Source: an uncultured bacterium (lineage in GTDB: Bacteria; Bacillota_I; Bacilli_A; RF39; UBA660). From it: a stretch of DNA of 57,671 nucleotides. Below are positions 11,852-45,876 of the stretch, piece after piece (within the stretch, counting starts at the first letter, position 1; every line of letters begins with the position of its first letter). The stretch covers positions 1 to 57,671 of the forward strand of contig CASDWO010000026.1 in the NCBI GenBank assembly GCA_949284575.1, read 5' to 3'. The notes under the pieces were generated by a model, which saw only the letters and a list, made by a program, of their open reading frames with translations, did not search any database and had not been told where the DNA came from. The position numbers and the translations under genes were made by a program.

Positions 11852-11939
11852 GTACGGTAGTGACTATCGGAATTTAAGCCTATGGAGAATAGGGAATACT
11901 CTATCTGTGAAGTAGGAATCCTTGGAGGTAACGACAAGG
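11852..11939 (+). repeat. 88-nt conserved core, copy 1 (85/88 identical to 32063-32150)
   Basis: gtacggtagtgactatcggaatttaagcctatggagaatagggaatactctatctgtgaagtaggaatccttggaggtaacgacaagg. It contains the hairpin cctat-ggaga-atagg and is followed by the 9-bp hairpin gaaataaaa/ttttatttc (11942-11963) and T4. Confidence 0.85.
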
Positions 11940-25700: not shown

Positions 25701-25791
25701 ATAATCACCTAATATACTTTATGTTTTTTATTATAAATTGTTCTACTAAGTAGTATAAAACTGTGATAAAATTAAAGGAGAGGTGGTACTT

Positions 25792-26835
25792 ATGAAAAAG
25801 AAGAGGAAAAGAATAATTACATTTATTATATTTATAATTTTACTATTAGCTTTAGCAGGAGGAGCTTACTATTATTTTATTTATCTTGGTAATGATATTC
25901 CTTTAGTAGAAAAAAAAGAAGAGTTAAATGTTTATGATGTTAATAGTAATAAACGTCCTATTGCTGTTATGATAGATAATAATGTAGAAAATGATGAACA
26001 AGTTGGTTTACAAGATGCTTATTTAACTTATGAAATAATAGTAGAGGGTGGTCTAACTCGAATGATGGCTATTTATAAAGATGTTGATACAAGTGTTATT
26101 GGACCAGTTCGTAGTAGTAGACATTACTTTTTAGATTATGCTCTTGAAAATGATGCAATATATGCTCATTATGGATGGAGTACTTATGCAGAGAATGATA
26201 TAAAGGCTCTTTCTGTTGATAATATTAATGGACTTTATGATGATGCCTTTTATCGTGATAGTAGTATTGCTACTCCTCATAATGTTTTTACTAGTATTGA
26301 TAATTTATATTTAAAAGCAGAAGAGTTAGGTTACGATACTACATCTAGTGATTATGAAAATTTAAATTATGTTAGTAAAAAGGTAGATTTGGAGAAAACT
26401 GATAATTCATTAAACTGTGATGGGGAGAATTGTAGTTTAGAAGATAGAAGTTTAACTAGTATTGATATTCCTTATTCAAATAGTGAAGTTAGAAGTTATA
26501 CTTATGATAGTGATAATGGTTATTATCTTCGTTATATGAATGGTATTCCTCATACTGATAGAGATAGTGGAGAGCAATATCATTATAAAAATATAATTAT
26601 TATGAAAGTAGATAATAGTACTCTTGATGATTATGATAGACAAGATTTGGATACAGTAGGAAGTGGGGAAGGTTATTATATTACTAATGGTTATATGATG
26701 CCTATTACTTGGGAGAAAGATTCAAGAAGTGGTAAGACTTATTATTCTTATAGTAATGGTGATGAAATAAAGGTGAGTGATGGTAATACTTTTATTCAAG
26801 TGATGCCTAGTAGTAGAGATGTAGTTGTTAATTAA
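25792..26835 (+). CDS. DUF3048 (YerB-like) domain protein, paralogue 1
   Basis: ATG 25792 follows aaaggagaggtgg. N-terminal TM/signal anchor. Contains RPIAVMIDNN...GLQDAYLTYEIIVEGGLTRMMAIYKD. Confidence 0.8.
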   Translation: MKKKRKRIITFIIFIILLLALAGGAYYYFIYLGNDIPLVEKKEELNVYDVNSNKRPIAVMIDNNVENDEQVGLQDAYLTYEIIVEGGLTRMMAIYKDVDTSVIGPVRSSRHYFLDYALENDAIYAHYGWSTYAENDIKALSVDNINGLYDDAFYRDSSIATPHNVFTSIDNLYLKAEELGYDTTSSDYENLNYVSKKVDLEKTDNSLNCDGENCSLEDRSLTSIDIPYSNSEVRSYTYDSDNGYYLRYMNGIPHTDRDSGEQYHYKNIIIMKVDNSTLDDYDRQDLDTVGSGEGYYITNGYMMPITWEKDSRSGKTYYSYSNGDEIKVSDGNTFIQVMPSSRDVVVN

Positions 26836-27119: not shown

Positions 27120-27287
27120 ATTCCCATTTTCTTTATTGGTAGGGAACACCGCTTTTTAATTATGTCTATAATGTATCATATTTTTCATTGCTTTGTAAAT
27201 AGTATATTTTTTGTCAAGTTTTGGAAACTTTTCCTTTAAAGTTTAATTATTATTTAAACTGTGCTAAAATTTAGTTGGGTGGTAGTC

Positions 27288-28364
27288 GTGAGAAAGCCAA
27301 AATCTTTAGGTGAAGTTAGGATTAAACCTAACCATAATAAAAAGAAAATAATTATAATTAGTGTTATTAGTGTAGCATTACTTTTAATATTAATAGGTCT
27401 CTTTTATTTTTTGTTGTCTATGAATGATAGTAAATCTAATAAAAAAGAGAACGTGAAAATAGATGATGTTAGTACTGTTCCTAAAAAGGATTTAACTGTT
27501 TACGATGTTAATAGTAATAAAAGACCTATTGCCGTTATGATTGATAATAATGTTGGTAATAATGCTCATGTAGGATTACAAGATGCTTATTTAACTTATG
27601 AAATAATTGTAGAAGGTGGATTAACTCGTATAATGGCTATTTTTAAAGATGTTAATACTAGTGTTATTGGTCCTGTTAGAAGTAGTAGACATTATTTTTT
27701 AGATTATGCTTTAGAAAGTGATGCTATTTATGCTCATTATGGATGGAGTACTTTTGCACAAAATGATATTAGAGTTTTAGGTGTTAATAATATAAATGGT
27801 CTTTATGATAATGGTTATTATCGTAATTATAATATTGCAGCACCTCATAATGTTTTTACAAGTATAGAAGATTTATATAACGTTGCTACTAGTAAAGGTT
27901 ATAGTACTACTAGTGATAATTATAGTCTTTTGAATTATACTACTGATGATATTGCTTTTAATGATACAAGTGATCTTTTGACTGCAAATAATATTAGTAT
28001 GACATATTCTTATAGCGAGGTTAGAAGTTATACTTATGATTCTACTAATAGATATTATTTACGTTATATGAATAATAGTCCGCATATTGATAGAGATAGC
28101 GGGGAAGGGTATCATTATAAAAATATAATTATTATGAAAGTTAATAATAGTACTCTTGATAGTTATGGTAGACAAGCTTTAGATACTGTAGGTAGTGGGG
28201 AAGGATATTACATTACTAATGGTTATGCTATACCTATTACTTGGAGTAAAGATTCTAGAAGTGGTAAGACTCATTATTATTATGGTGGTAATGAGTTAGT
28301 TGTTAGTGATGGTAATACGATGATACAAGTAGTACCTGTTAATAGTAGTATTACAATTAGTTAG
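27288..28364 (+). CDS. DUF3048 (YerB-like) domain protein, paralogue 2
   Basis: The central ~130 aa are nearly identical to paralogue 1. Probable GTG start at 27288 after gttgggtgg (the track gives 27261). Confidence 0.8.
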   Translation: MRKPKSLGEVRIKPNHNKKKIIIISVISVALLLILIGLFYFLLSMNDSKSNKKENVKIDDVSTVPKKDLTVYDVNSNKRPIAVMIDNNVGNNAHVGLQDAYLTYEIIVEGGLTRIMAIFKDVNTSVIGPVRSSRHYFLDYALESDAIYAHYGWSTFAQNDIRVLGVNNINGLYDNGYYRNYNIAAPHNVFTSIEDLYNVATSKGYSTTSDNYSLLNYTTDDIAFNDTSDLLTANNISMTYSYSEVRSYTYDSTNRYYLRYMNNSPHIDRDSGEGYHYKNIIIMKVNNSTLDSYGRQALDTVGSGEGYYITNGYAIPITWSKDSRSGKTHYYYGGNELVVSDGNTMIQVVPVNSSITIS

Positions 28365-31956: not shown

Positions 31957-32175
31957 GTGTTGACGTTTATATACCCTATATAGTACACTATTGTTACAAG
32001 TTATTAACTAATTTTATGAAATTAGATGAAACTTGTAATTATAGCTTTATATAAAACATAATGTACGGTAGCGACTATCGGAATTTAAGCCTATGGAGAA
32101 TAGGGAATACTCTATCTATGAAGTAGGAATCCTTAGAGGTAACGACAAGGAGAAACAATTTATTTTGTTTTATGT
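31957..32175 (+). mobile_element. miniature paralogue (element C) of relic A: same promoter-like 5' module, 88-nt core and hairpin
   Basis: TTGACG, an 18-nt spacer with a tatata-ccc-tatata hairpin, then TACACT (31960-31989) aligns with 11485-11514. The core at 32063-32150 is 85/88 identical to 11852-11939. The hairpin aaacaa/ttgttt shows a compensatory T:A to C:G change. Confidence 0.55.
32063..32150 (+). repeat. 88-nt conserved core, copy 2
   Basis: Direct sequence comparison with 11852-11939 shows 3 substitutions. Confidence 0.85.
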
Positions 32176-38467: not shown

Positions 38468-38677
38468 GTGCAAATAAAGATAGAAAAACAAGTAATAAAT
38501 TATAAAAAAGGACATGCTTTTGAAAATGCTGAAGAAAGAAATAGACAAGCTATTAAACAGATTCATAAATATTTAAAAGAAATGAAAGATAATAGTATTG
38601 TTCCTAGTTATGAAGCTAGTAAGTTTATACCTAGGTCTAAAGTATTAAGAAAAAAATTACAAGATAAATTTGCATAA
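38468..38677 (+). CDS. hypothetical small basic protein
   Basis: 69 aa with a GTG start. Its stop lies in the first bases of repeat A. Weak call. Confidence 0.35.
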   Translation: MQIKIEKQVINYKKGHAFENAEERNRQAIKQIHKYLKEMKDNSIVPSYEASKFIPRSKVLRKKLQDKFA

Positions 38678-38704
38678 ATGTAATAATTATGATATGATGT
38701 ATAT

Positions 38705-38820
38705 GTAAGAAAAAATTTTCATACAATATAAAAAGAGGAACAATTCAATTCGTCAAGTGAATGTCTCCTCAAAAAAATGGGTTTGACACTCTAGTCATGA
38801 TGATTAGAGTGTCGTTTTTA
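38705..38820 (+). ncRNA. candidate antitoxin sRNA, copy A
   Basis: Promoter TTGCAT (38670-75), 17 nt, TATGAT (38693-98). Internal long hairpin gagga..attca/tgaat..tcctc. Terminator gacactcta/tagagtgtc followed by T5 (38785-38820). It is convergent with the toxin ORF and overlaps its 3' end. Confidence 0.55.
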
Positions 38821-38910
38821 TATTTTAATGGCTATTACCAATATGGCAAGGCTTAAAATAATAAAAGCAAGAGACTTTAAAAGTCTTAATATAAAAGCTT
38901 TGATTTTCAC
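38818..38910 (-). CDS. candidate type I toxin, 30-aa hydrophobic peptide (MKIKAFILRLLKSLAFIILSLAILVIAIKI)
   Basis: GTG start 8 nt after aaaggagg. Minus-strand promoter TTGCTA-17-TACTAT (39005-38977). The 5' UTR segment ctcctt can pair with aaggag, occluding the RBS. The ORF is conserved in copy B. Confidence 0.55.
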   Translation of the reverse strand: MKIKAFILRLLKSLAFIILSLAILVIAIKI

Positions 38911-39060
38911 TTTTATCAAGCCTCCTTTCATAAGTTGGAAGGAGACGACACTCATATTGAAATGTTCCTTATAAATATAGTATCAAATTAAATTTTGTAT
39001 AGCAAGAGAAAATGTAGTAAATTAGGCGAATTTTCGTAAATGTATTTCTATTTTTATATA

Positions 39061-39091
39061 TTGACTCTCTAGTTAACTGTAATGTTAAAGT
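39061..39091 (+). promoter_or_regulatory. MerR-type promoter with a 19-bp spacer, upstream of the merR-like operon
   Basis: TTGACT, 19 nt (ctctAGTTAACTgtaatgt, palindromic core AGTTAACT), TAAAGT. A near-identical copy lies at 40809-40839. Confidence 0.65.
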
Positions 39092-39321
39092 AGCAGTGAA
39101 GGGAGGAAAATATTATAGATAGTGATACTAAAATAAAGATAGTGCAACTTAAGATGCTTAAGATGTTATTATTGTTATTAAGGGATGAACTTGAAAGAGA
39201 AGATTATATTGTTAAGGAAACTGTAAAAGAAGAACAAAAGGTGCTAGTTTTGACCAGAAAGTTTAGAGGTAAATCTATTAAAGTTCTTTAAATTGTAGTA
39301 TGATATTTATGAAAGGTACTG

Positions 39322-39711
39322 ATGCTTATGCTGTATAGGATTGGTGAGTTTTCTAAACTTACTGGTATTCCAATTAGAACTCTTAGGTATTATGATAGTA
39401 TAGATTTGTTTAAACCTAGTGAAGTTGATTTGTTTACTAGTTATAGATATTATAAAGAAGAACAAGTTAAAGATTTAGAACTTATTAATGAGTTAAAAGA
39501 AGTGGGTTTTACTTTAGAAGAGATTAGAGATAATTGGAATAATTTTAGTGAAGAATTATTTCTTAAAAGAAAAGAGAAATTATTGGAAGAGATTAAACTT
39601 AAAAATGAAGCGATTAAGAAAACAGATATTTTAAGAAGTAAACTTAAAGATGGTAAGATAACAGATAAAATTATAGATAAAGAAATTATTAAGAAGAAAT
39701 CAATATTTTAG
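39322..39711 (+). CDS. MerR family transcriptional regulator (short, coiled-coil C-terminus only)
   Basis: YRIGEFSKLTGIPIRTLRYYDSIDLFKP...YRYY is the canonical MerR HTH and wing. 129 aa. Confidence 0.9.
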   Translation: MLMLYRIGEFSKLTGIPIRTLRYYDSIDLFKPSEVDLFTSYRYYKEEQVKDLELINELKEVGFTLEEIRDNWNNFSEELFLKRKEKLLEEIKLKNEAIKKTDILRSKLKDGKITDKIIDKEIIKKKSIF

Positions 39712-39726
39712 GAAAGGTGATGTTTT

Positions 39727-40755
39727 ATGAAAAATACAAATTTAATAATTGGAGAAGTTAATACTTATAAGACTACTGGTGTTATGTTTAATGAAGTAAT
39801 AAACTCTATTAAAAATGGAGAAAATTTATTAATTTTAGATAATAAAAATGAATACTTTGGTACCTTTAAGAGTGAACTTGATAAGAATAATTATAATACA
39901 TTGGTTTTTAATTTAGATGATGCTTATAAAAGTAATAGTTTTAATCCTTTAATACTACCTCATAAATATTATAAAGAAGGTAATAAGGATAAAGCAGTGG
40001 AAATGATTAAAGAACTTGGACTTGAAATATTTAAGACTGATAATCATTATATTGATCCTTTTTGGGAAAATAGTGCAGCAGATTATTTTATGGCTTTAGT
40101 TTTAATACTATTTAAAGAAGGAAAAGAAGAAGAGATTAATTTAGGTAGTATTCAGGTTATGATTAATAAAAACGATAAGATTACTAAGTACTTTGATAGT
40201 TTAGATGTTCTTGATTCTATCTATATTGCAGGAAGTACTACTGTTTATGCACCTGTTGAGACTAGAGATAGTATTCTTTCTGTAATGAAACAAAAACTAA
40301 ATGAGTTTTGTGTAAGAGAAATGTTACTTAATAATTTATTAGGTAATGATATTGATTTATCTAATATAAAAGAGAAAACTGCTATATTTATTATTGGTAA
40401 TGAAAAGATTAATAGGTTAGGTAATATTTTAATTGATGAGTTAGTTAATATTTCAATAGACAATAATATCTTGTTTACCTTTTTCTTAGATGGTCTATGT
40501 GATGTACCTGTTATTTTAGAGTTTAATAGAATATTAGATAAGAAAATGAGATTATTTGTAACAGTTCGTTCTTTAGAAGAGTTAGAAAATAAATATGGTA
40601 AGTATATAATGGGTAAATTTGATAATTGTGTTAAAAGTGTTGATGTTGTTGATAAAGATAATTTAATAAACATTGGTAACTCTAAAGATTATCCTGAATC
40701 TAAAGTTAATAAAGGTGTATATTTTAATATTGAAGAGCTTGTAAATAAATTTTAA
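39727..40755 (+). CDS. soluble TraG/VirD4 (type IV coupling protein)-like protein with degenerate NTPase motifs
   Basis: Collinear with the T4CP NBD core: NLIIGEVNTYKTTG (Walker A position, second Gly replaced by Tyr), LLILDNKNEY, SFNPL, DPFWENSAADYF..L.LIL, and FFLDGLCD (Walker B position, DE replaced by DG). No TM segments. Confidence 0.55.
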   Translation: MKNTNLIIGEVNTYKTTGVMFNEVINSIKNGENLLILDNKNEYFGTFKSELDKNNYNTLVFNLDDAYKSNSFNPLILPHKYYKEGNKDKAVEMIKELGLEIFKTDNHYIDPFWENSAADYFMALVLILFKEGKEEEINLGSIQVMINKNDKITKYFDSLDVLDSIYIAGSTTVYAPVETRDSILSVMKQKLNEFCVREMLLNNLLGNDIDLSNIKEKTAIFIIGNEKINRLGNILIDELVNISIDNNILFTFFLDGLCDVPVILEFNRILDKKMRLFVTVRSLEELENKYGKYIMGKFDNCVKSVDVVDKDNLINIGNSKDYPESKVNKGVYFNIEELVNKF

Positions 40756-40808
40756 AATAATTTATGGAAGTAGAATTTATCTGCTTCTTTTCTTATGCGA
40801 AAAAACTA

Positions 40809-40839
40809 TTGACTCTCCAGTTAACTGTAATGTTATGCT
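40809..40839 (+). promoter_or_regulatory. MerR-type promoter with a 19-bp spacer, upstream of the ABC exporter
   Basis: TTGACT, 19 nt (ctccAGTTAACTgtaatgt), TATGCT. 28 of 31 positions are identical to 39061-39091. Confidence 0.65.
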
Positions 40840-40871
40840 TAAGTTGTAAATCTTTTTGAAGGGGGAGTTTG

Positions 40872-42611
40872 ATGAAAAAGATTAAAAATAATTTTAAAGA
40901 ATTGAAGACAAATTTAAAGATGAGTTGGTATTTTGTTAAGGAGGAGAAACTATATTTTGTACTACTTGCTATTTTATCATTAGTACTTGCAGGGATAGGT
41001 TTTATTTTACCTTTGTTTTCTGCACAGTTACTTTTAAAACTTACAGATGGATTATTAAAAGACTTGATGTTAGTGGCAATTATTATATTCTTTATAGAGA
41101 TATTTAGAAATATAGTAGCATATTTCTTTAGAAGAATTTTTGAACTTTATTCTATAAAAGCTACTACAAATGCACAAATTAAAATGTTTGAAGAGACATT
41201 GAAAATTAAAACATCAGAGTTAGAAGATAATACTACAGGAATGTTTGTTGATAGAATTAATAATGATACAGAAGAGATAATTAATACTTTTTCGCAGTTG
41301 TGTTCTGTTACTATAAATATTATTTCTAATATAGGTGTTTTTCTAGCAGTGTTTGTTATAAATAAATATATGTTTTTATATTTTGTGATCTCTTTTATAA
41401 TTATAGTTATAATAGAGACTAAGAGAACAAATATTTATTATGAGAGAACTAAAAAAATGCGATTAATTAGTGAGAAGAAAACTGGTCTTATATCAGAGAT
41501 AGTTAGAGGATTACAAGATATTAAATTATTAAATGCTCAGTCTGGTATATTAAAGAAAACAAGAAAACAACTACAAGATATTAATGATGAAAGAATAGGT
41601 ATTGTTAAAGTGACATCTAATTTTCAATTTATTTCAGGAAGTGTAAGTGATTTATTTGATGTTATATTTTTTGCATTAGGTAGTTTACTTGTTTATTTAA
41701 ATAGTCTTACTATTGCTAACTTTGTTATTTTATATACGTATAAGTCTAGAATAGATAATTTATTAAATTTCTATAATAGTTTTAATATGTATGTTAAGAA
41801 TTTTAATTTGAGTGCTACAAGAGTATTTGAAGTTATAGGAGATACTTTTGATAAAGAAAGTGATAAAGGTAAAAGAATAGATAAATTAAATGGAAAAATA
41901 GAGTTTGAAGATGTCTCTTTTGCTTATGATAAAGATAATGTTTTAAATAATATAAGTTTTACTATTAATAAAGGGGAAAGAATAGGTTTTGTTGGTAGTT
42001 CTGGTAGTGGAAAAAGTACTATATTTAAATTATTAACTAAGTTATATTCATTAAATGAAGGAAAGATATTAATTGATGGAGAAGATATTAATAATATTTC
42101 TAATAAGTCATTAAGAAAAAATATATCTTTAATTTCGCAAAGTCCTTATATATTTAATTTCTCAGTATTAGATAATTTAAAAATAGGAAATTTAGATGCT
42201 TCCAATGATGAAGTTAAAGAGACTTGTAAGAAGGCAGATATTTATGATGTAATTATGGATCTTGATGATAAATTTAATACTTTTGTTGGTGAAGGGGGAG
42301 TGATGTTAAGTGGTGGTGAAAAACAAAGACTTGCTATTGCTAGAACTCTTTTAAAGAAAAGTAATATTATTCTTTTTGATGAAGCGACAAGTGCTTTAGA
42401 TAGTGTTACTCAAGATAAAGTTCAGAAAGCTATATATGGATTAGATAAAGATAAAACAATATTAATTATTGCACATAGATTATCTACTGTTAATAAATGT
42501 GATAGAATAGTAGTTGTAGATGACGGGAATATTGTTGATATTGGTACACATAAAGAATTATATAAAAGATGTAGTAAGTATAGAGAATTATATGATTGTG
42601 AAATAGCTTAA
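40872..42611 (+). CDS. ABC exporter, fused permease/ATP-binding protein
   Basis: Six-TM domain. Walker A GSSGSGKST, LSGGEKQR, ILFDEATSALD and AHRL. ATG 40872 follows aagggggag. Confidence 0.9.
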   Translation: MKKIKNNFKELKTNLKMSWYFVKEEKLYFVLLAILSLVLAGIGFILPLFSAQLLLKLTDGLLKDLMLVAIIIFFIEIFRNIVAYFFRRIFELYSIKATTNAQIKMFEETLKIKTSELEDNTTGMFVDRINNDTEEIINTFSQLCSVTINIISNIGVFLAVFVINKYMFLYFVISFIIIVIIETKRTNIYYERTKKMRLISEKKTGLISEIVRGLQDIKLLNAQSGILKKTRKQLQDINDERIGIVKVTSNFQFISGSVSDLFDVIFFALGSLLVYLNSLTIANFVILYTYKSRIDNLLNFYNSFNMYVKNFNLSATRVFEVIGDTFDKESDKGKRIDKLNGKIEFEDVSFAYDKDNVLNNISFTINKGERIGFVGSSGSGKSTIFKLLTKLYSLNEGKILIDGEDINNISNKSLRKNISLISQSPYIFNFSVLDNLKIGNLDASNDEVKETCKKADIYDVIMDLDDKFNTFVGEGGVMLSGGEKQRLAIARTLLKKSNIILFDEATSALDSVTQDKVQKAIYGLDKDKTILIIAHRLSTVNKCDRIVVVDDGNIVDIGTHKELYKRCSKYRELYDCEIA

Positions 42612-42674
42612 CATAGCTTAAATTTATTATCAGAAACATTTGCATAAATGTAATAATTATGATATAGTGTATAT

Positions 42675-42788
42675 GTAAGAAAAATTTTCATACAATATAA
42701 AAAGAGGAACAATTCAATTCGTCGAGTGAATGTCGCCTCCAAAGATTGGTTTTGACACTCAAACATTATTTGTTGAGTGTCGTTTTTA
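42675..42788 (+). ncRNA. candidate antitoxin sRNA, copy B
   Basis: TTGCAT (42640-45), 17 nt, TATAGT (42663-68). Terminator gacactcaa/ttgagtgtc followed by T5. Confidence 0.5.
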
Positions 42789-42878
42789 TATTTTTATAGC
42801 TACTACCAATATGGTAAGGCTTAAAATAATAAAAGCAAAAGACTTTAAAAGTCTTAATATAAAAGTTTTGATTTTCAC
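42786..42878 (-). CDS. candidate type I toxin, 30-aa hydrophobic peptide (MKIKTFILRLLKSFAFIILSLTILVVAIKI)
   Basis: Same frame, length and RBS as copy A, with 4 conservative substitutions and the ORF kept open. Confidence 0.55.
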   Translation of the reverse strand: MKIKTFILRLLKSFAFIILSLTILVVAIKI

Positions 42879-43037
42879 TTTTATCAAGCCTCCTTTCATA
42901 TGTTGAAAGGAGACGACACTCATATTGAAATGTTCCTTATAAATATAGTATCAAATTAATTTCTGTATAGCAAGATAAGATGTAATAAATTAGTTACGAG
43001 TTTTCGTAATATTAGATGTGTTAAGGTAGTGATATTT

Positions 43038-45192: not shown

Positions 45193-45826
45193 GTGCGCCA
45201 GTTCGGTGTTTAATATATAGTCGGGTGGGAAACCGACATGGTAAGACCTAGCAAGTCGCCATTAGTTAGCCTTGGAGTCGAAGTCGTGAGATTAGATTTA
45301 AGCGTAGGTAAACGAGAATACGAGCCGTAATACGAAAGTGTGAAGCGATTCAGCCTCGTTAAATATAAATAGTGGTAGTCGATGTGTTCCACTTCACAGC
45401 AGACAATAACGGCGATATCGATAAGCGAGATATCGTGAGAGTGCCACCGGGGTCAATAGAGCATGGCGAGTATATCATTGATATATTAAGCATACCTGGG
45501 AGAACTTATAAATTCCTAATTCTAAACGGTTTAAAACACCAATAGTAACAGGTATGCCGAAGCAAGGTTTTGTAAACTAAGTAAGGCAAATGATTTATAA
45601 GTAGTCGGACTAGTTCATAGTAGCAAAGAAGGAAGTAATGACTCTGGAGCGAAGGGACTAGCATATAAGTCGATTTATATATGAAACAATGCTAATGTGC
45701 TAGATGCATTAAGCCAATGCAAAATGAATATATGAAATAACTTGAGTAGCAAATGGCTTATATGAAGAGCCGTATGCGAGAAAACCGCACGTACGGTTCT
45801 GTGAGGGGCGACAGACTTCCTCTCAC
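45193..45826 (+). ncRNA. ORF-less group II intron-like RNA (about 634 nt)
   Basis: 5' GTGCG. Domain V is gagccgtatgcgagaaaaccgcacgtacggttc (45767-45799). A domain VI-position hairpin gtgagggg/cctctcac lies at 45801-45826. EBS1 CCACTT (45389-94) is complementary to AAGTGG (45187-92). No RT/maturase ORF. G+C is clearly above the flanks. The 3' end is approximate. Confidence 0.85.
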
Positions 45827-45876
45827 TAAAGAAAGAAAGAGAGGTGGGGTCGAGTCGTCTACTCGACTGAAGAATA

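Follow-up and report, generated by a model that had tools for sequence, protein, structure and literature searches.

A ~370-bp module of uncultured gut Bacilli as a probable new family of type I toxin-antitoxin systems

What kind of element is formed where a gene for a very short hydrophobic peptide faces, on the opposite strand, a promoter and a terminator hairpin? The question is raised by the region around positions 38668-39039 of a stretch of 57,671 nucleotides (the window; contig CASDWO010000026.1, assembly GCA_949284575.1) from an uncultured bacterium of the Bacilli. In an initial annotation, made from the letters alone, the region had been read as a type I toxin-antitoxin module in which a hydrophobic peptide is controlled by a convergent small RNA (sRNA). 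The region is one of two copies (A and B) in the window of a ~370-bp module with a peptide gene opposite a predicted antisense RNA, and it probably represents a new family of type I toxin-antitoxin systems. The core idea of the initial annotation, namely a type I-like hydrophobic peptide with a convergent cis-antisense sRNA, a lock on the Shine-Dalgarno (SD) sequence and probable novelty as a family, passed all computational tests available at the level of sequence; three of its details, concerning the terminator of the peptide mRNA, the most closely related systems and the contact between sRNA and SD sequence, needed correction. Support for the type I assignment comes from purifying selection on the open reading frame (ORF), two conserved promoters, covariation in the hairpins, co-evolution of the 5' and 3' ends of the mRNA, and the lack of a match to known families.

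All sequence features named in the initial annotation were found at their positions when both strands were read. In DNA with a GC content of 27%, promoter-like hexamers carry little weight alone: 29 were found in the window, compared to 37.7 expected from shuffled sequences, which is not significant. The weight of the argument therefore rests on the second copy, on the RNA folds and their z-scores, and on conservation and covariation over more than 100 related copies.

The peptide gene of copy A is read from the minus strand. Its promoter (38977-39005) consists of the -35 hexamer TTGCTA (39005-39000), a 17-nt spacer and the extended -10 element TGaTACTAT (38985-38977, with TACTAT at 38982-38977). 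Transcription is predicted to start near 38970, which gives a 5' untranslated region (UTR) of 59-60 nt. In the folds, this UTR contains a regulatory stretch (38939-38953) composed of GAGUGUCG (38953-38946), which is complementary to the stems of both 3' hairpins, and of the anti-SD UCUCCUU (38945-38939), which is complementary to the SD sequence AAAGGAGG (38928-38921). The latter is invariant in the alignments and stands 10 nt ahead of a GTG start codon (38910-38908) and an ORF of 30 codons (38818-38910) that ends with TAA (38820-38818) and encodes the peptide MKIKAFILRLLKSLAFIILSLAILVIAIKI. The outer edge of the module is marked by a degenerate 16-bp palindrome (39025-39040, minus strand), for which the alignments gave the family consensus TTACGAAAATTCGTAA.

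On the plus strand, the sRNA promoter (38670-38698) has the -35 hexamer TTGCAT (38670-38675), a 17-nt spacer and the extended -10 element TGaTATGAT (38690-38698, with TATGAT at 38693-38698). The predicted antisense sRNA (38705-38822, start near 38705) of ~115 nt comprises a conserved A/U-rich 5' leader, a 5' hairpin (hairpin 2, 38735-38770), a terminator hairpin of 14 pairs (hairpin 1, 38784-38814) and a U-run (TTTTT, 38815-38819). Both hairpins are also encoded on the minus strand. There, hairpin 1 stands in the 3' UTR directly after the stop codon, and hairpin 2 (38770-38735), followed by UUUUU (38734-38730), is the likely intrinsic terminator of the peptide mRNA, a feature that the initial annotation lacked. 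With ends inferred from promoter and terminator, the full-length peptide mRNA is predicted at 38727-38970 (~245 nt, minus strand). Its two ends would pair in a long-distance 5'-3' helix, and it would further contain an SD/anti-SD hairpin and the ORF, with hairpin 1, hairpin 2 and a U-run after it. The elements described initially for the minus strand (promoter, ~60-nt 5' UTR, SD pairing, GTG and 30-codon ORF) and for the plus strand (promoter and ~115 nt up to a strong terminator) could all be read in the sequence.

Related copies were gathered by pattern and peptide scans, with one genome per species. In every complete copy of the peptide type found in the window (the KIK type) that was aligned, the ORF has exactly 30 codons and starts with ATG in some copies and with GTG in others, 8-9 nt after the SD sequence. 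The peptides of a divergent group, MKIKTFILKLLKSVALVVISLALLVVAIKI, differ from that of copy A at ~30% of residues, and all of these exchanges are conservative. Between groups, the ratio of nonsynonymous to synonymous substitution rates (dN/dS) was 0.15-0.23 at a dS of 0.7-1.2; variable sites were distributed over codon positions 1, 2 and 3 as 13/4/16, with the second position least variable. The other five reading frames gave worse scores or contained stops. To judge from this pattern, the 30-codon ORF is a real coding gene under purifying selection, and its conservation, which the initial annotation had named as one of the points on which its proposal could fail, was seen in the complete copies aligned.

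Public protein collections contain the peptide as an entry of 45 amino acids (P0001, P0002), when gene callers predict it at all. The longer reading, from an upstream in-frame AUG, was rejected: the extension is unconserved (AUG-UGA in loci L006 and L015, absent from modules with NKKD-type peptides) and the ATG or GTG after the strong SD sequence is universal. The real product is in all likelihood the 30-residue peptide, and the 45-residue annotation appears to be over-called. The peptide is hydrophobic, as had been described initially, and cationic, with a grand average of hydropathy (GRAVY) of 1.99, a net charge of +5 and an uncharged core of 16 residues flanked by Lys; it contains neither Pro nor Gly. 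Toxins of the type I class are shorter than 60 residues and hydrophobic, with one alpha-helical transmembrane segment (PMC8309996). The peptide is small and hydrophobic in this sense; for a transmembrane helix, its core is rather short.

The antisense RNA was modelled with a covariance model (R1) built from 10 copies of the sRNA. Within the loci retrieved, R1 had 115 full-length matches; its only matches in the window were copy A, exactly at 38705-38822 (139.6 bits), and copy B, exactly at 42675-42790 (137.2 bits). In the R1 alignment of 83 distinct sequences, compensatory double changes were found in 20 of the 21 pairs of the two hairpins, comprising all 9 modelled pairs of hairpin 1 and 11 of the 12 pairs of hairpin 2. 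Standard pairs filled 89.8% of the pair cells, compared to 73.7% in shuffles and 35-56% with slid partners, and the covariation score was 0.41, compared to 0.17 and 0.05-0.08, respectively. The two copies of the window themselves show a compensatory difference in hairpin 1 (CTCTA/TAGAG in copy A, CTCAA/TTGAG in copy B). The sRNA of copy A folds with -32.4 kcal/mol (z -5.0). Its spacer between the hairpins carries indels and no plus-strand ORF is conserved; a candidate plus-strand ORF (31 or 48 residues) was discarded because of its unconserved start and the same indels. The TG-extended -10 element of the sRNA promoter and its spacing are kept over sequence variants (TTGACA-17-TGnTACTAT and the forms ending in TGnTAAGAT and TGnTACAAT), and copies missed by the promoter pattern still showed a convergent extended -10 promoter on inspection. 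The peptide promoter is conserved across both peptide families described below; both convergent promoters keep the extended -10 geometry despite sequence differences.

The initial annotation had let both RNAs end at a single shared terminator. This does not agree with the distribution of U-runs over 83 distinct modules. In the direction of the peptide gene, only 2% of modules have a U-run after hairpin 1, copy A being one of these exceptions, whereas 99% have one after hairpin 2; on the sRNA strand, the values are 95% for hairpin 1 and 22% for hairpin 2. The peptide mRNA is therefore predicted to end after hairpin 2 and the sRNA after hairpin 1. As each RNA would end at the hairpin nearer to the start of the other, the predicted transcripts overlap by ~90 nt with perfect complementarity, across both hairpins but not the ORF. 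The stem at the end of the sRNA closes at 38814, its U-run extends to 38819 and the stop codon occupies 38818-38820, so that the overlap with the ORF comprises at most the stop codon.

The peptide mRNA is predicted to fold far more stably than shuffled sequences, with -70.9 kcal/mol (z -8.05) for copy A and -74.4 kcal/mol (z -8.46) for copy B. In these folds the SD sequence is paired with the upstream anti-SD and the 5' end with the 3' end; the latter helix was also recovered by RNAalifold. The probability of the SD sequence being unpaired was 0.00-0.01 for copy A, and 0-0.1 within the KIK family in three modelled states (5' part alone, full-length mRNA, and mRNA with the 3' UTR blocked). The 5' UTR of the mRNA repeats the sequence of the sRNA's 5' hairpin almost exactly, the two forming an internal inverted repeat in the DNA, and is therefore complementary to the mRNA's own 3' UTR. 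Across families, the 5'-UTR motif covaries with the 3' hairpins (GAGUGUC/GACACUC, UUGGGUG/CACCUAA, UUGGGUACU/AGUACUCAA). Cognate and non-cognate combinations were compared using the variable inner segments only, the cores of the MNKKD type being entirely different in sequence. Cognate duplexes of 5' UTR and 3' UTR had a mean of -21.6 kcal/mol, compared to -13.6 kcal/mol across families, and a mean z of -4.9 against shuffled tails. Subfamilies with unrelated sequence keep the 5'-3' complementarity (e.g. -22.8 vs -8.4), and in modules of the copy-B type two G·U pairs maintain the 14-bp helix. In these models, the mRNA would be built to be translationally silent, with a 5'-3' pairing that co-evolves across otherwise unrelated modules. 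In the database T1TAdb, type I toxin mRNAs are defined by SD sequestration, terminal stem-loops and/or a 5'-3' interaction (PMC8594479); in silico, the peptide mRNA shows such features in its SD/anti-SD hairpin and co-evolving 5'-3' helix.

The motif UCUCCU, which according to the initial annotation could pair with the SD sequence of the toxin, is present in the sRNA (38765-38770). A specific trans site of the sRNA on the 5' UTR or SD sequence was not supported, as cognate and cross-family duplexes had about equal energies (-25.9 vs -24.1 kcal/mol). Since the SD sequence was paired in all three modelled states, the sRNA probably neither opens nor closes it.

By analogy with Gram-positive systems, the peptide, once made, may cause membrane damage or depolarisation. 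The sRNA would bind to the 3' UTR of the mRNA, probably starting at the complementary hairpin loops, and the duplex would be cleaved and degraded, probably by an RNase III-type enzyme and other RNases, which would keep the mRNA below a harmful level. Given the close likeness of the 5' UTR to the sRNA's 5' hairpin, the sRNA and the 5' end of the mRNA may compete for the same site in the 3' UTR. Translation would need an added activating step, such as processing or refolding.

Several points weigh against a toxin-antitoxin interpretation or limit it. The peptide matches no known toxin family, so that toxicity cannot be deduced from homology, and an uncharged core of 16 residues is short for a transmembrane helix. 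The SD sequence is predicted to be locked with or without an occupied 3' UTR, and the model for this reason explains neither how the peptide is translated nor how the sRNA would act on translation. The alignment that yielded the covariation values had been fitted to the structure of the model. Wobble pairs, which could have assigned the hairpins to one strand, were counted as 34 vs 32 in hairpin 1 and 74 vs 40 in hairpin 2 and do not allow this assignment: the counts are symmetric at hairpin 1, as would be expected if both RNAs use the stems, and the mild skew at hairpin 2 is subject to bias from the model alignment. Metatranscriptome data (8 runs) gave only unstranded Logan contigs of low depth. 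Several of these extend into promoter DNA or stop where the repeat blocks stop, and they may include DNA; they were rejected as evidence of transcript ends because they are unstranded and of low depth and their ends coincide with repeat borders.

The distribution of the module was determined with two block scans. With the sRNA promoter block, 30 loci were obtained, and with the block that lies upstream of the peptide promoter, 110 stretches. All belong to metagenome-assembled genomes (MAGs) of uncultured Bacilli or "Tenericutes" from gut samples, and most sequencing runs in which the element occurs are metagenomes of the chicken gut. Among the hosts are Candidatus Onthousia faecipullorum and Ca. 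O. excrementipullorum, both listed as Bacilli incertae sedis at NCBI. The module is chromosomal, and the family, previously undescribed, is limited to gut Bacilli that resemble Candidatus Onthousia. It numbers at least 136 distinct copies; an SD sequence and a small ORF are present in 129 of these 136. The copies encode two unrelated types of peptide, one beginning with KIK, KMK or KTK after the start (MKIK...; 30-31 residues) and the other with NKKD, SKKD or RKID (MNKKD...; 25-30 residues). Two outer blocks are near-identical in both types. One holds the palindrome TTACGAAAATTCGTAA and the peptide promoter and takes in the initial ~10 nt of the mRNA; the other holds the sRNA promoter and the initial ~35 nt of the sRNA. 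No alignment is possible for the ~250-bp cores that they enclose.

On one closed chromosome of 1.52 Mb there are at least 10 modules, which together encode at least 8 different peptides. Tandem arrays occur, as do occasional decayed copies, which are consistent with turnover of paralogues. Among the latter, locus L048 (L048_25) has a truncated 3' region and an altered C-terminus of the peptide, and others have in-frame stops in the first codons. Many copies, tandem arrays and decayed copies would be typical for type I systems of chromosomes. Most neighbours are core genes with unrelated housekeeping functions, on which account an association with mobile elements was rejected. The modules usually lie between convergent genes; for 67 of 101 modules, the gene that follows in the plus direction is encoded on the opposite strand.

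The palindrome lies ~20 nt upstream of the -35 element of the peptide promoter and is kept family-wide. In the window, its consensus was found within 2 mismatches only at copy B. It may serve to bind a regulator or form a weak insulating hairpin. The same palindrome and promoter block also drive a Bro-N (DinD-like) gene at L042:303-760 (plus strand), and likewise in loci L096, L114, L121 and L125. That this block is shared with the Bro-N gene hints at a common regulator.

Copy B (42626-43009, minus strand) lies 3,969 bp downstream of copy A, is ~92% identical to it and has an intact ORF (42786-42878, minus strand) for the peptide MKIKTFILRLLKSFAFIILSLTILVVAIKI. On the same strand are its SD sequence (42889-42896), the peptide promoter (-10 at 42945-42950, -35 at 42968-42973) and the intact palindrome (42994-43009). 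The plus strand carries the sRNA promoter (TTGCAT, 42640-42645; TGaTATAGT, 42660-42668), which was read from the sequence, and the predicted sRNA (42675-42790) with hairpin 2 at 42704-42739 and hairpin 1 at 42754-42781.

Copies A and B bracket an accessory cassette of 3.6 kb (39041-42625, plus strand) with genes for a MerR-family regulator (39322-39711), a fragment of a VirD4-like coupling protein (39727-40755, 342 residues) and an ABC exporter (40869-42611), assigned with Pfam and NCBIfam. As a presence/absence polymorphism, the cassette is missing from three related genomes (loci L001, L002 and L004), where the outer flanks are the same but are connected by a single module, and is found in L003 from Ca. 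O. faecipullorum. In Ca. O. faecipullorum, the site orthologous to copy B (L025:1583-1950) holds a core of the MNKKD type instead of the KIK type, between outer promoter blocks and flanks that are near-identical to those of the window; the locus aligns to the window at 91% overall. From this core swap between near-identical blocks at an orthologous site and from the cassette polymorphism, cores and neighbouring cassettes are judged to be exchanged through the conserved outer blocks, and the promoter blocks would act as homology arms for the exchange of toxin and antitoxin cores and of the cassettes next to them. A wider proposal would have a fixed chassis of two promoters in which cores are swapped by recombination, a 5' UTR that mimics the antitoxin and makes a three-way RNA switch, chassis copies that serve as homology arms for cassettes, and a common regulator for all toxins; taken as a whole, it is put forward tentatively and is rather doubtful.

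Searches for relatives led back to the family itself. The two peptides of the window, searched with HMMER in 1.84 billion representatives, gave only two clusters, both from the module family, and no distant relatives; a search of a large protein collection with the over-called 45-residue form gave a single cluster with the same peptide. With ten peptides of both types, Pfam, NCBIfam and PHROGs gave no match at E<=10 other than one chance-level CD225 hit. In Rfam, no hit at the locus reached the gathering threshold, and the best hits up to E<=10 scored 12-22 bits, compared to thresholds of 50-95, and came from unrelated families. A pattern scan of viral contigs gave 0 hits, blastn against annotated plasmids and phages gave no match, and in a targeted literature search no prior description of the modules or of type I systems in the genus was found. 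The initial suggestion that the peptide bears no obvious similarity to Fst, TxpA or PepA1 and may belong to a new family is in accordance with these results.

A conserved cationic-hydrophobic peptide with a 16-residue core could also suit a surface-active amphipathic peptide. The product might then be a small membrane-active or secreted peptide (regulatory, or else cytolytic or bacteriocin-like in the manner of phenol-soluble modulins) that is tuned by the antisense RNA without being a self-toxin, and the sRNA would not be an antidote; the lack of homology to any proven toxin and the ABC exporter between the two copies in the window would fit this. However, the exporter cassette is absent from most related loci, the family-wide flanks are unrelated housekeeping genes, and no signal peptide, leader-cleavage motif or dedicated processing gene was found. 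An elaborate translational lock, together with an antisense RNA of full complementarity and a large number of diverging paralogues in each genome, is, moreover, the hallmark of type I loci (PMC8594479), and such a peptide is considered unlikely. Far less credible is a non-coding intergenic repeat of the REP, BOX or MITE kind, in which promoters and bidirectional terminators would make an insulator or a recombination hotspot and the ORF would be incidental. The element is indeed highly repeated (110 stretches, 136 distinct copies in one clade), usually stands between convergent genes, contains internal inverted repeats and has near-invariant outer blocks that take part in the exchange of cassettes and cores. 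Yet the length, start and SD sequence of the ORF are conserved, with dN/dS of 0.15-0.23 at near-saturated dS and second codon positions the least variable; two unrelated cores both encode peptides of 25-31 residues with the same architecture; and neither terminal inverted repeats at the ends of the element nor a target-site duplication were seen.

As promoter, ~115 nt and terminator also form the layout of a 5' leader or attenuator, and as in both copies of the window the plus-strand promoter and terminator face co-directional downstream genes (the MerR operon after copy A, a DUF1848 gene after copy B), the plus-strand RNA could belong to these genes and not be an antitoxin. The next gene in that direction is, however, on the opposite strand in two thirds of the modules (67/101, as given above), any transcript reading through would have to traverse the entire peptide gene with its promoter in antisense beforehand, and no known riboswitch or leader family was matched, which leaves this explanation with a very small probability. 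A type I toxin-antitoxin module is the preferred interpretation.

If it holds, uncultured gut Bacilli with small genomes harbour a sizeable new family of at least 136 modules with two unrelated peptide types. As gene callers miss the peptide or call it with 45 residues, the covariance model and the patterns would allow these loci to be annotated in chicken-gut MAGs. Diverged cores in one promoter frame would be a dataset for the co-evolution of SD locks, 5'-3' interactions and antisense pairing, and could supply orthogonal RNA-controlled kill switches. Given that two copies bracket a cassette and that a sister species has a different core at the orthologous site, the modules would also shape genome plasticity in the clade.

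Other features were noted elsewhere in the window. An intergenic repeat of 88 nt (11852-11939 and 32063-32150; copies 97% identical) recurs in related genomes. It has a fold z-score of -3.3, was not matched by Rfam at E<=1 and is a candidate for an unclassified structured RNA or leader. A group II intron RNA was found at 45228-45867 on the plus strand (RF02005, 111 bits, domains 1-4; RF00029, 55 bits, domains 5-6), with no ORF for an intron-encoded protein evident inside. Two tandem paralogous genes (25783-26835 and 27261-28364) are ~84% identical over 300-nt blocks and contain internal repeats of 47 nt.

Among known systems, the chromosomal modules of Bacillus subtilis, TxpA/RatA, BsrG/SR4 and BsrE/SR5, resemble the family as cis-antisense pairs that overlap at the 3' side in a low-GC Gram-positive host, and the decay role proposed here for the sRNA is similar. 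In these systems, a perfect duplex of ~75-120 nt triggers degradation of the mRNA, and the toxins have 38-59 residues. Their loci are tied to prophages or the skin element, whereas the modules described here lie among core genes; the toxins are unrelated in sequence. Their antisense RNA overlaps the 3' part of the ORF (PMC8594479), whereas the sRNA here is predicted to stop at the stop codon. The resemblance to txpA/RatA and bsrG/SR4 proposed initially could not be maintained for this reason: since the overlap spares the ORF, the layout is nearer to Fst/RNAII and SprA1/SprA1as.

The type I modules of Clostridioides difficile (e.g. CD2517.1/RCd8) resemble the family, as predicted here, in convergent RNAs, a low-GC Firmicute host and multiple copies. 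Their toxins of ~34-53 residues have charged C-terminal tails and the modules adjoin CRISPR arrays or prophages; they differ from the modules here in that no similarity of sequence or RNA family exists. In the Gram-negative systems hok/sok and AapA1/IsoA1, the full-length toxin mRNA is locked by 5'-3' pairing and SD sequestration (PMC8594479). A 5'-3' lock is predicted here as well, and in the family described here the pairing covaries across families. The antitoxins of those systems pair near the 5' or initiation region within the mRNA, whereas here the predicted site is the 3' UTR; furthermore, a leader ORF is lacking here, the phylum is another one and the peptides are unrelated.

In SprA1/SprA1as of Staphylococcus aureus (toxin PepA1), the antisense RNA overlaps only the 3' end of the mRNA and not the ORF (PMC8594479), and SprA1as carries a sequence able to pair with the ribosome-binding site of the toxin (PMC8309996). 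The family shares a putative membrane peptide of 30 residues and a predicted 3' overlap without the ORF, and its sRNA contains the anti-SD-like GUCUCCUC; it differs in a much longer overlap and in the absence of a PxxxGC motif and of sequence similarity, and a specific contact between sRNA and SD sequence is not supported. The overlap is likewise outside the ORF in Fst/RNAII, the par system carried by plasmid pAD1 from Enterococcus faecalis, and in the Fst/Ldr group including Lpt (PMC8594479). In Fst, the SD sequence is sequestered in an intramolecular stem-loop and contact between the RNAs starts at the terminator loops; in par, the direct DNA repeats DRa and DRb make the 5' regions of both RNAs complementary, and the interaction covers the start codon (PMC8309996). 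Convergent RNAs, an antisense RNA on the 3' side, an overlap without the ORF and an SD stem-loop are predicted for the family as well, and its peptide is likewise hydrophobic and of ~30 residues. In contrast to par, an inverted repeat here makes the 5' UTR of the mRNA resemble the sRNA and complement its own 3' end, and the 5' regions of the two RNAs are not complementary. The overlap of ~90 nt extends over two hairpins instead of one shared terminator. The motif APxxxG or PxxxGC in the transmembrane helix is characteristic of the Fst/Ldr group (PMC8309996); it is absent from the peptides of copies A and B, which contain neither Pro nor Gly, do not end in a charged C-terminal tail and had no hits in Pfam or NCBIfam at E<=10. 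With a layout closest to Fst/RNAII and SprA1/SprA1as and with peptides and RNAs of its own, the module family is best classed as a probable new family of a known kind, type I, outside every named family.

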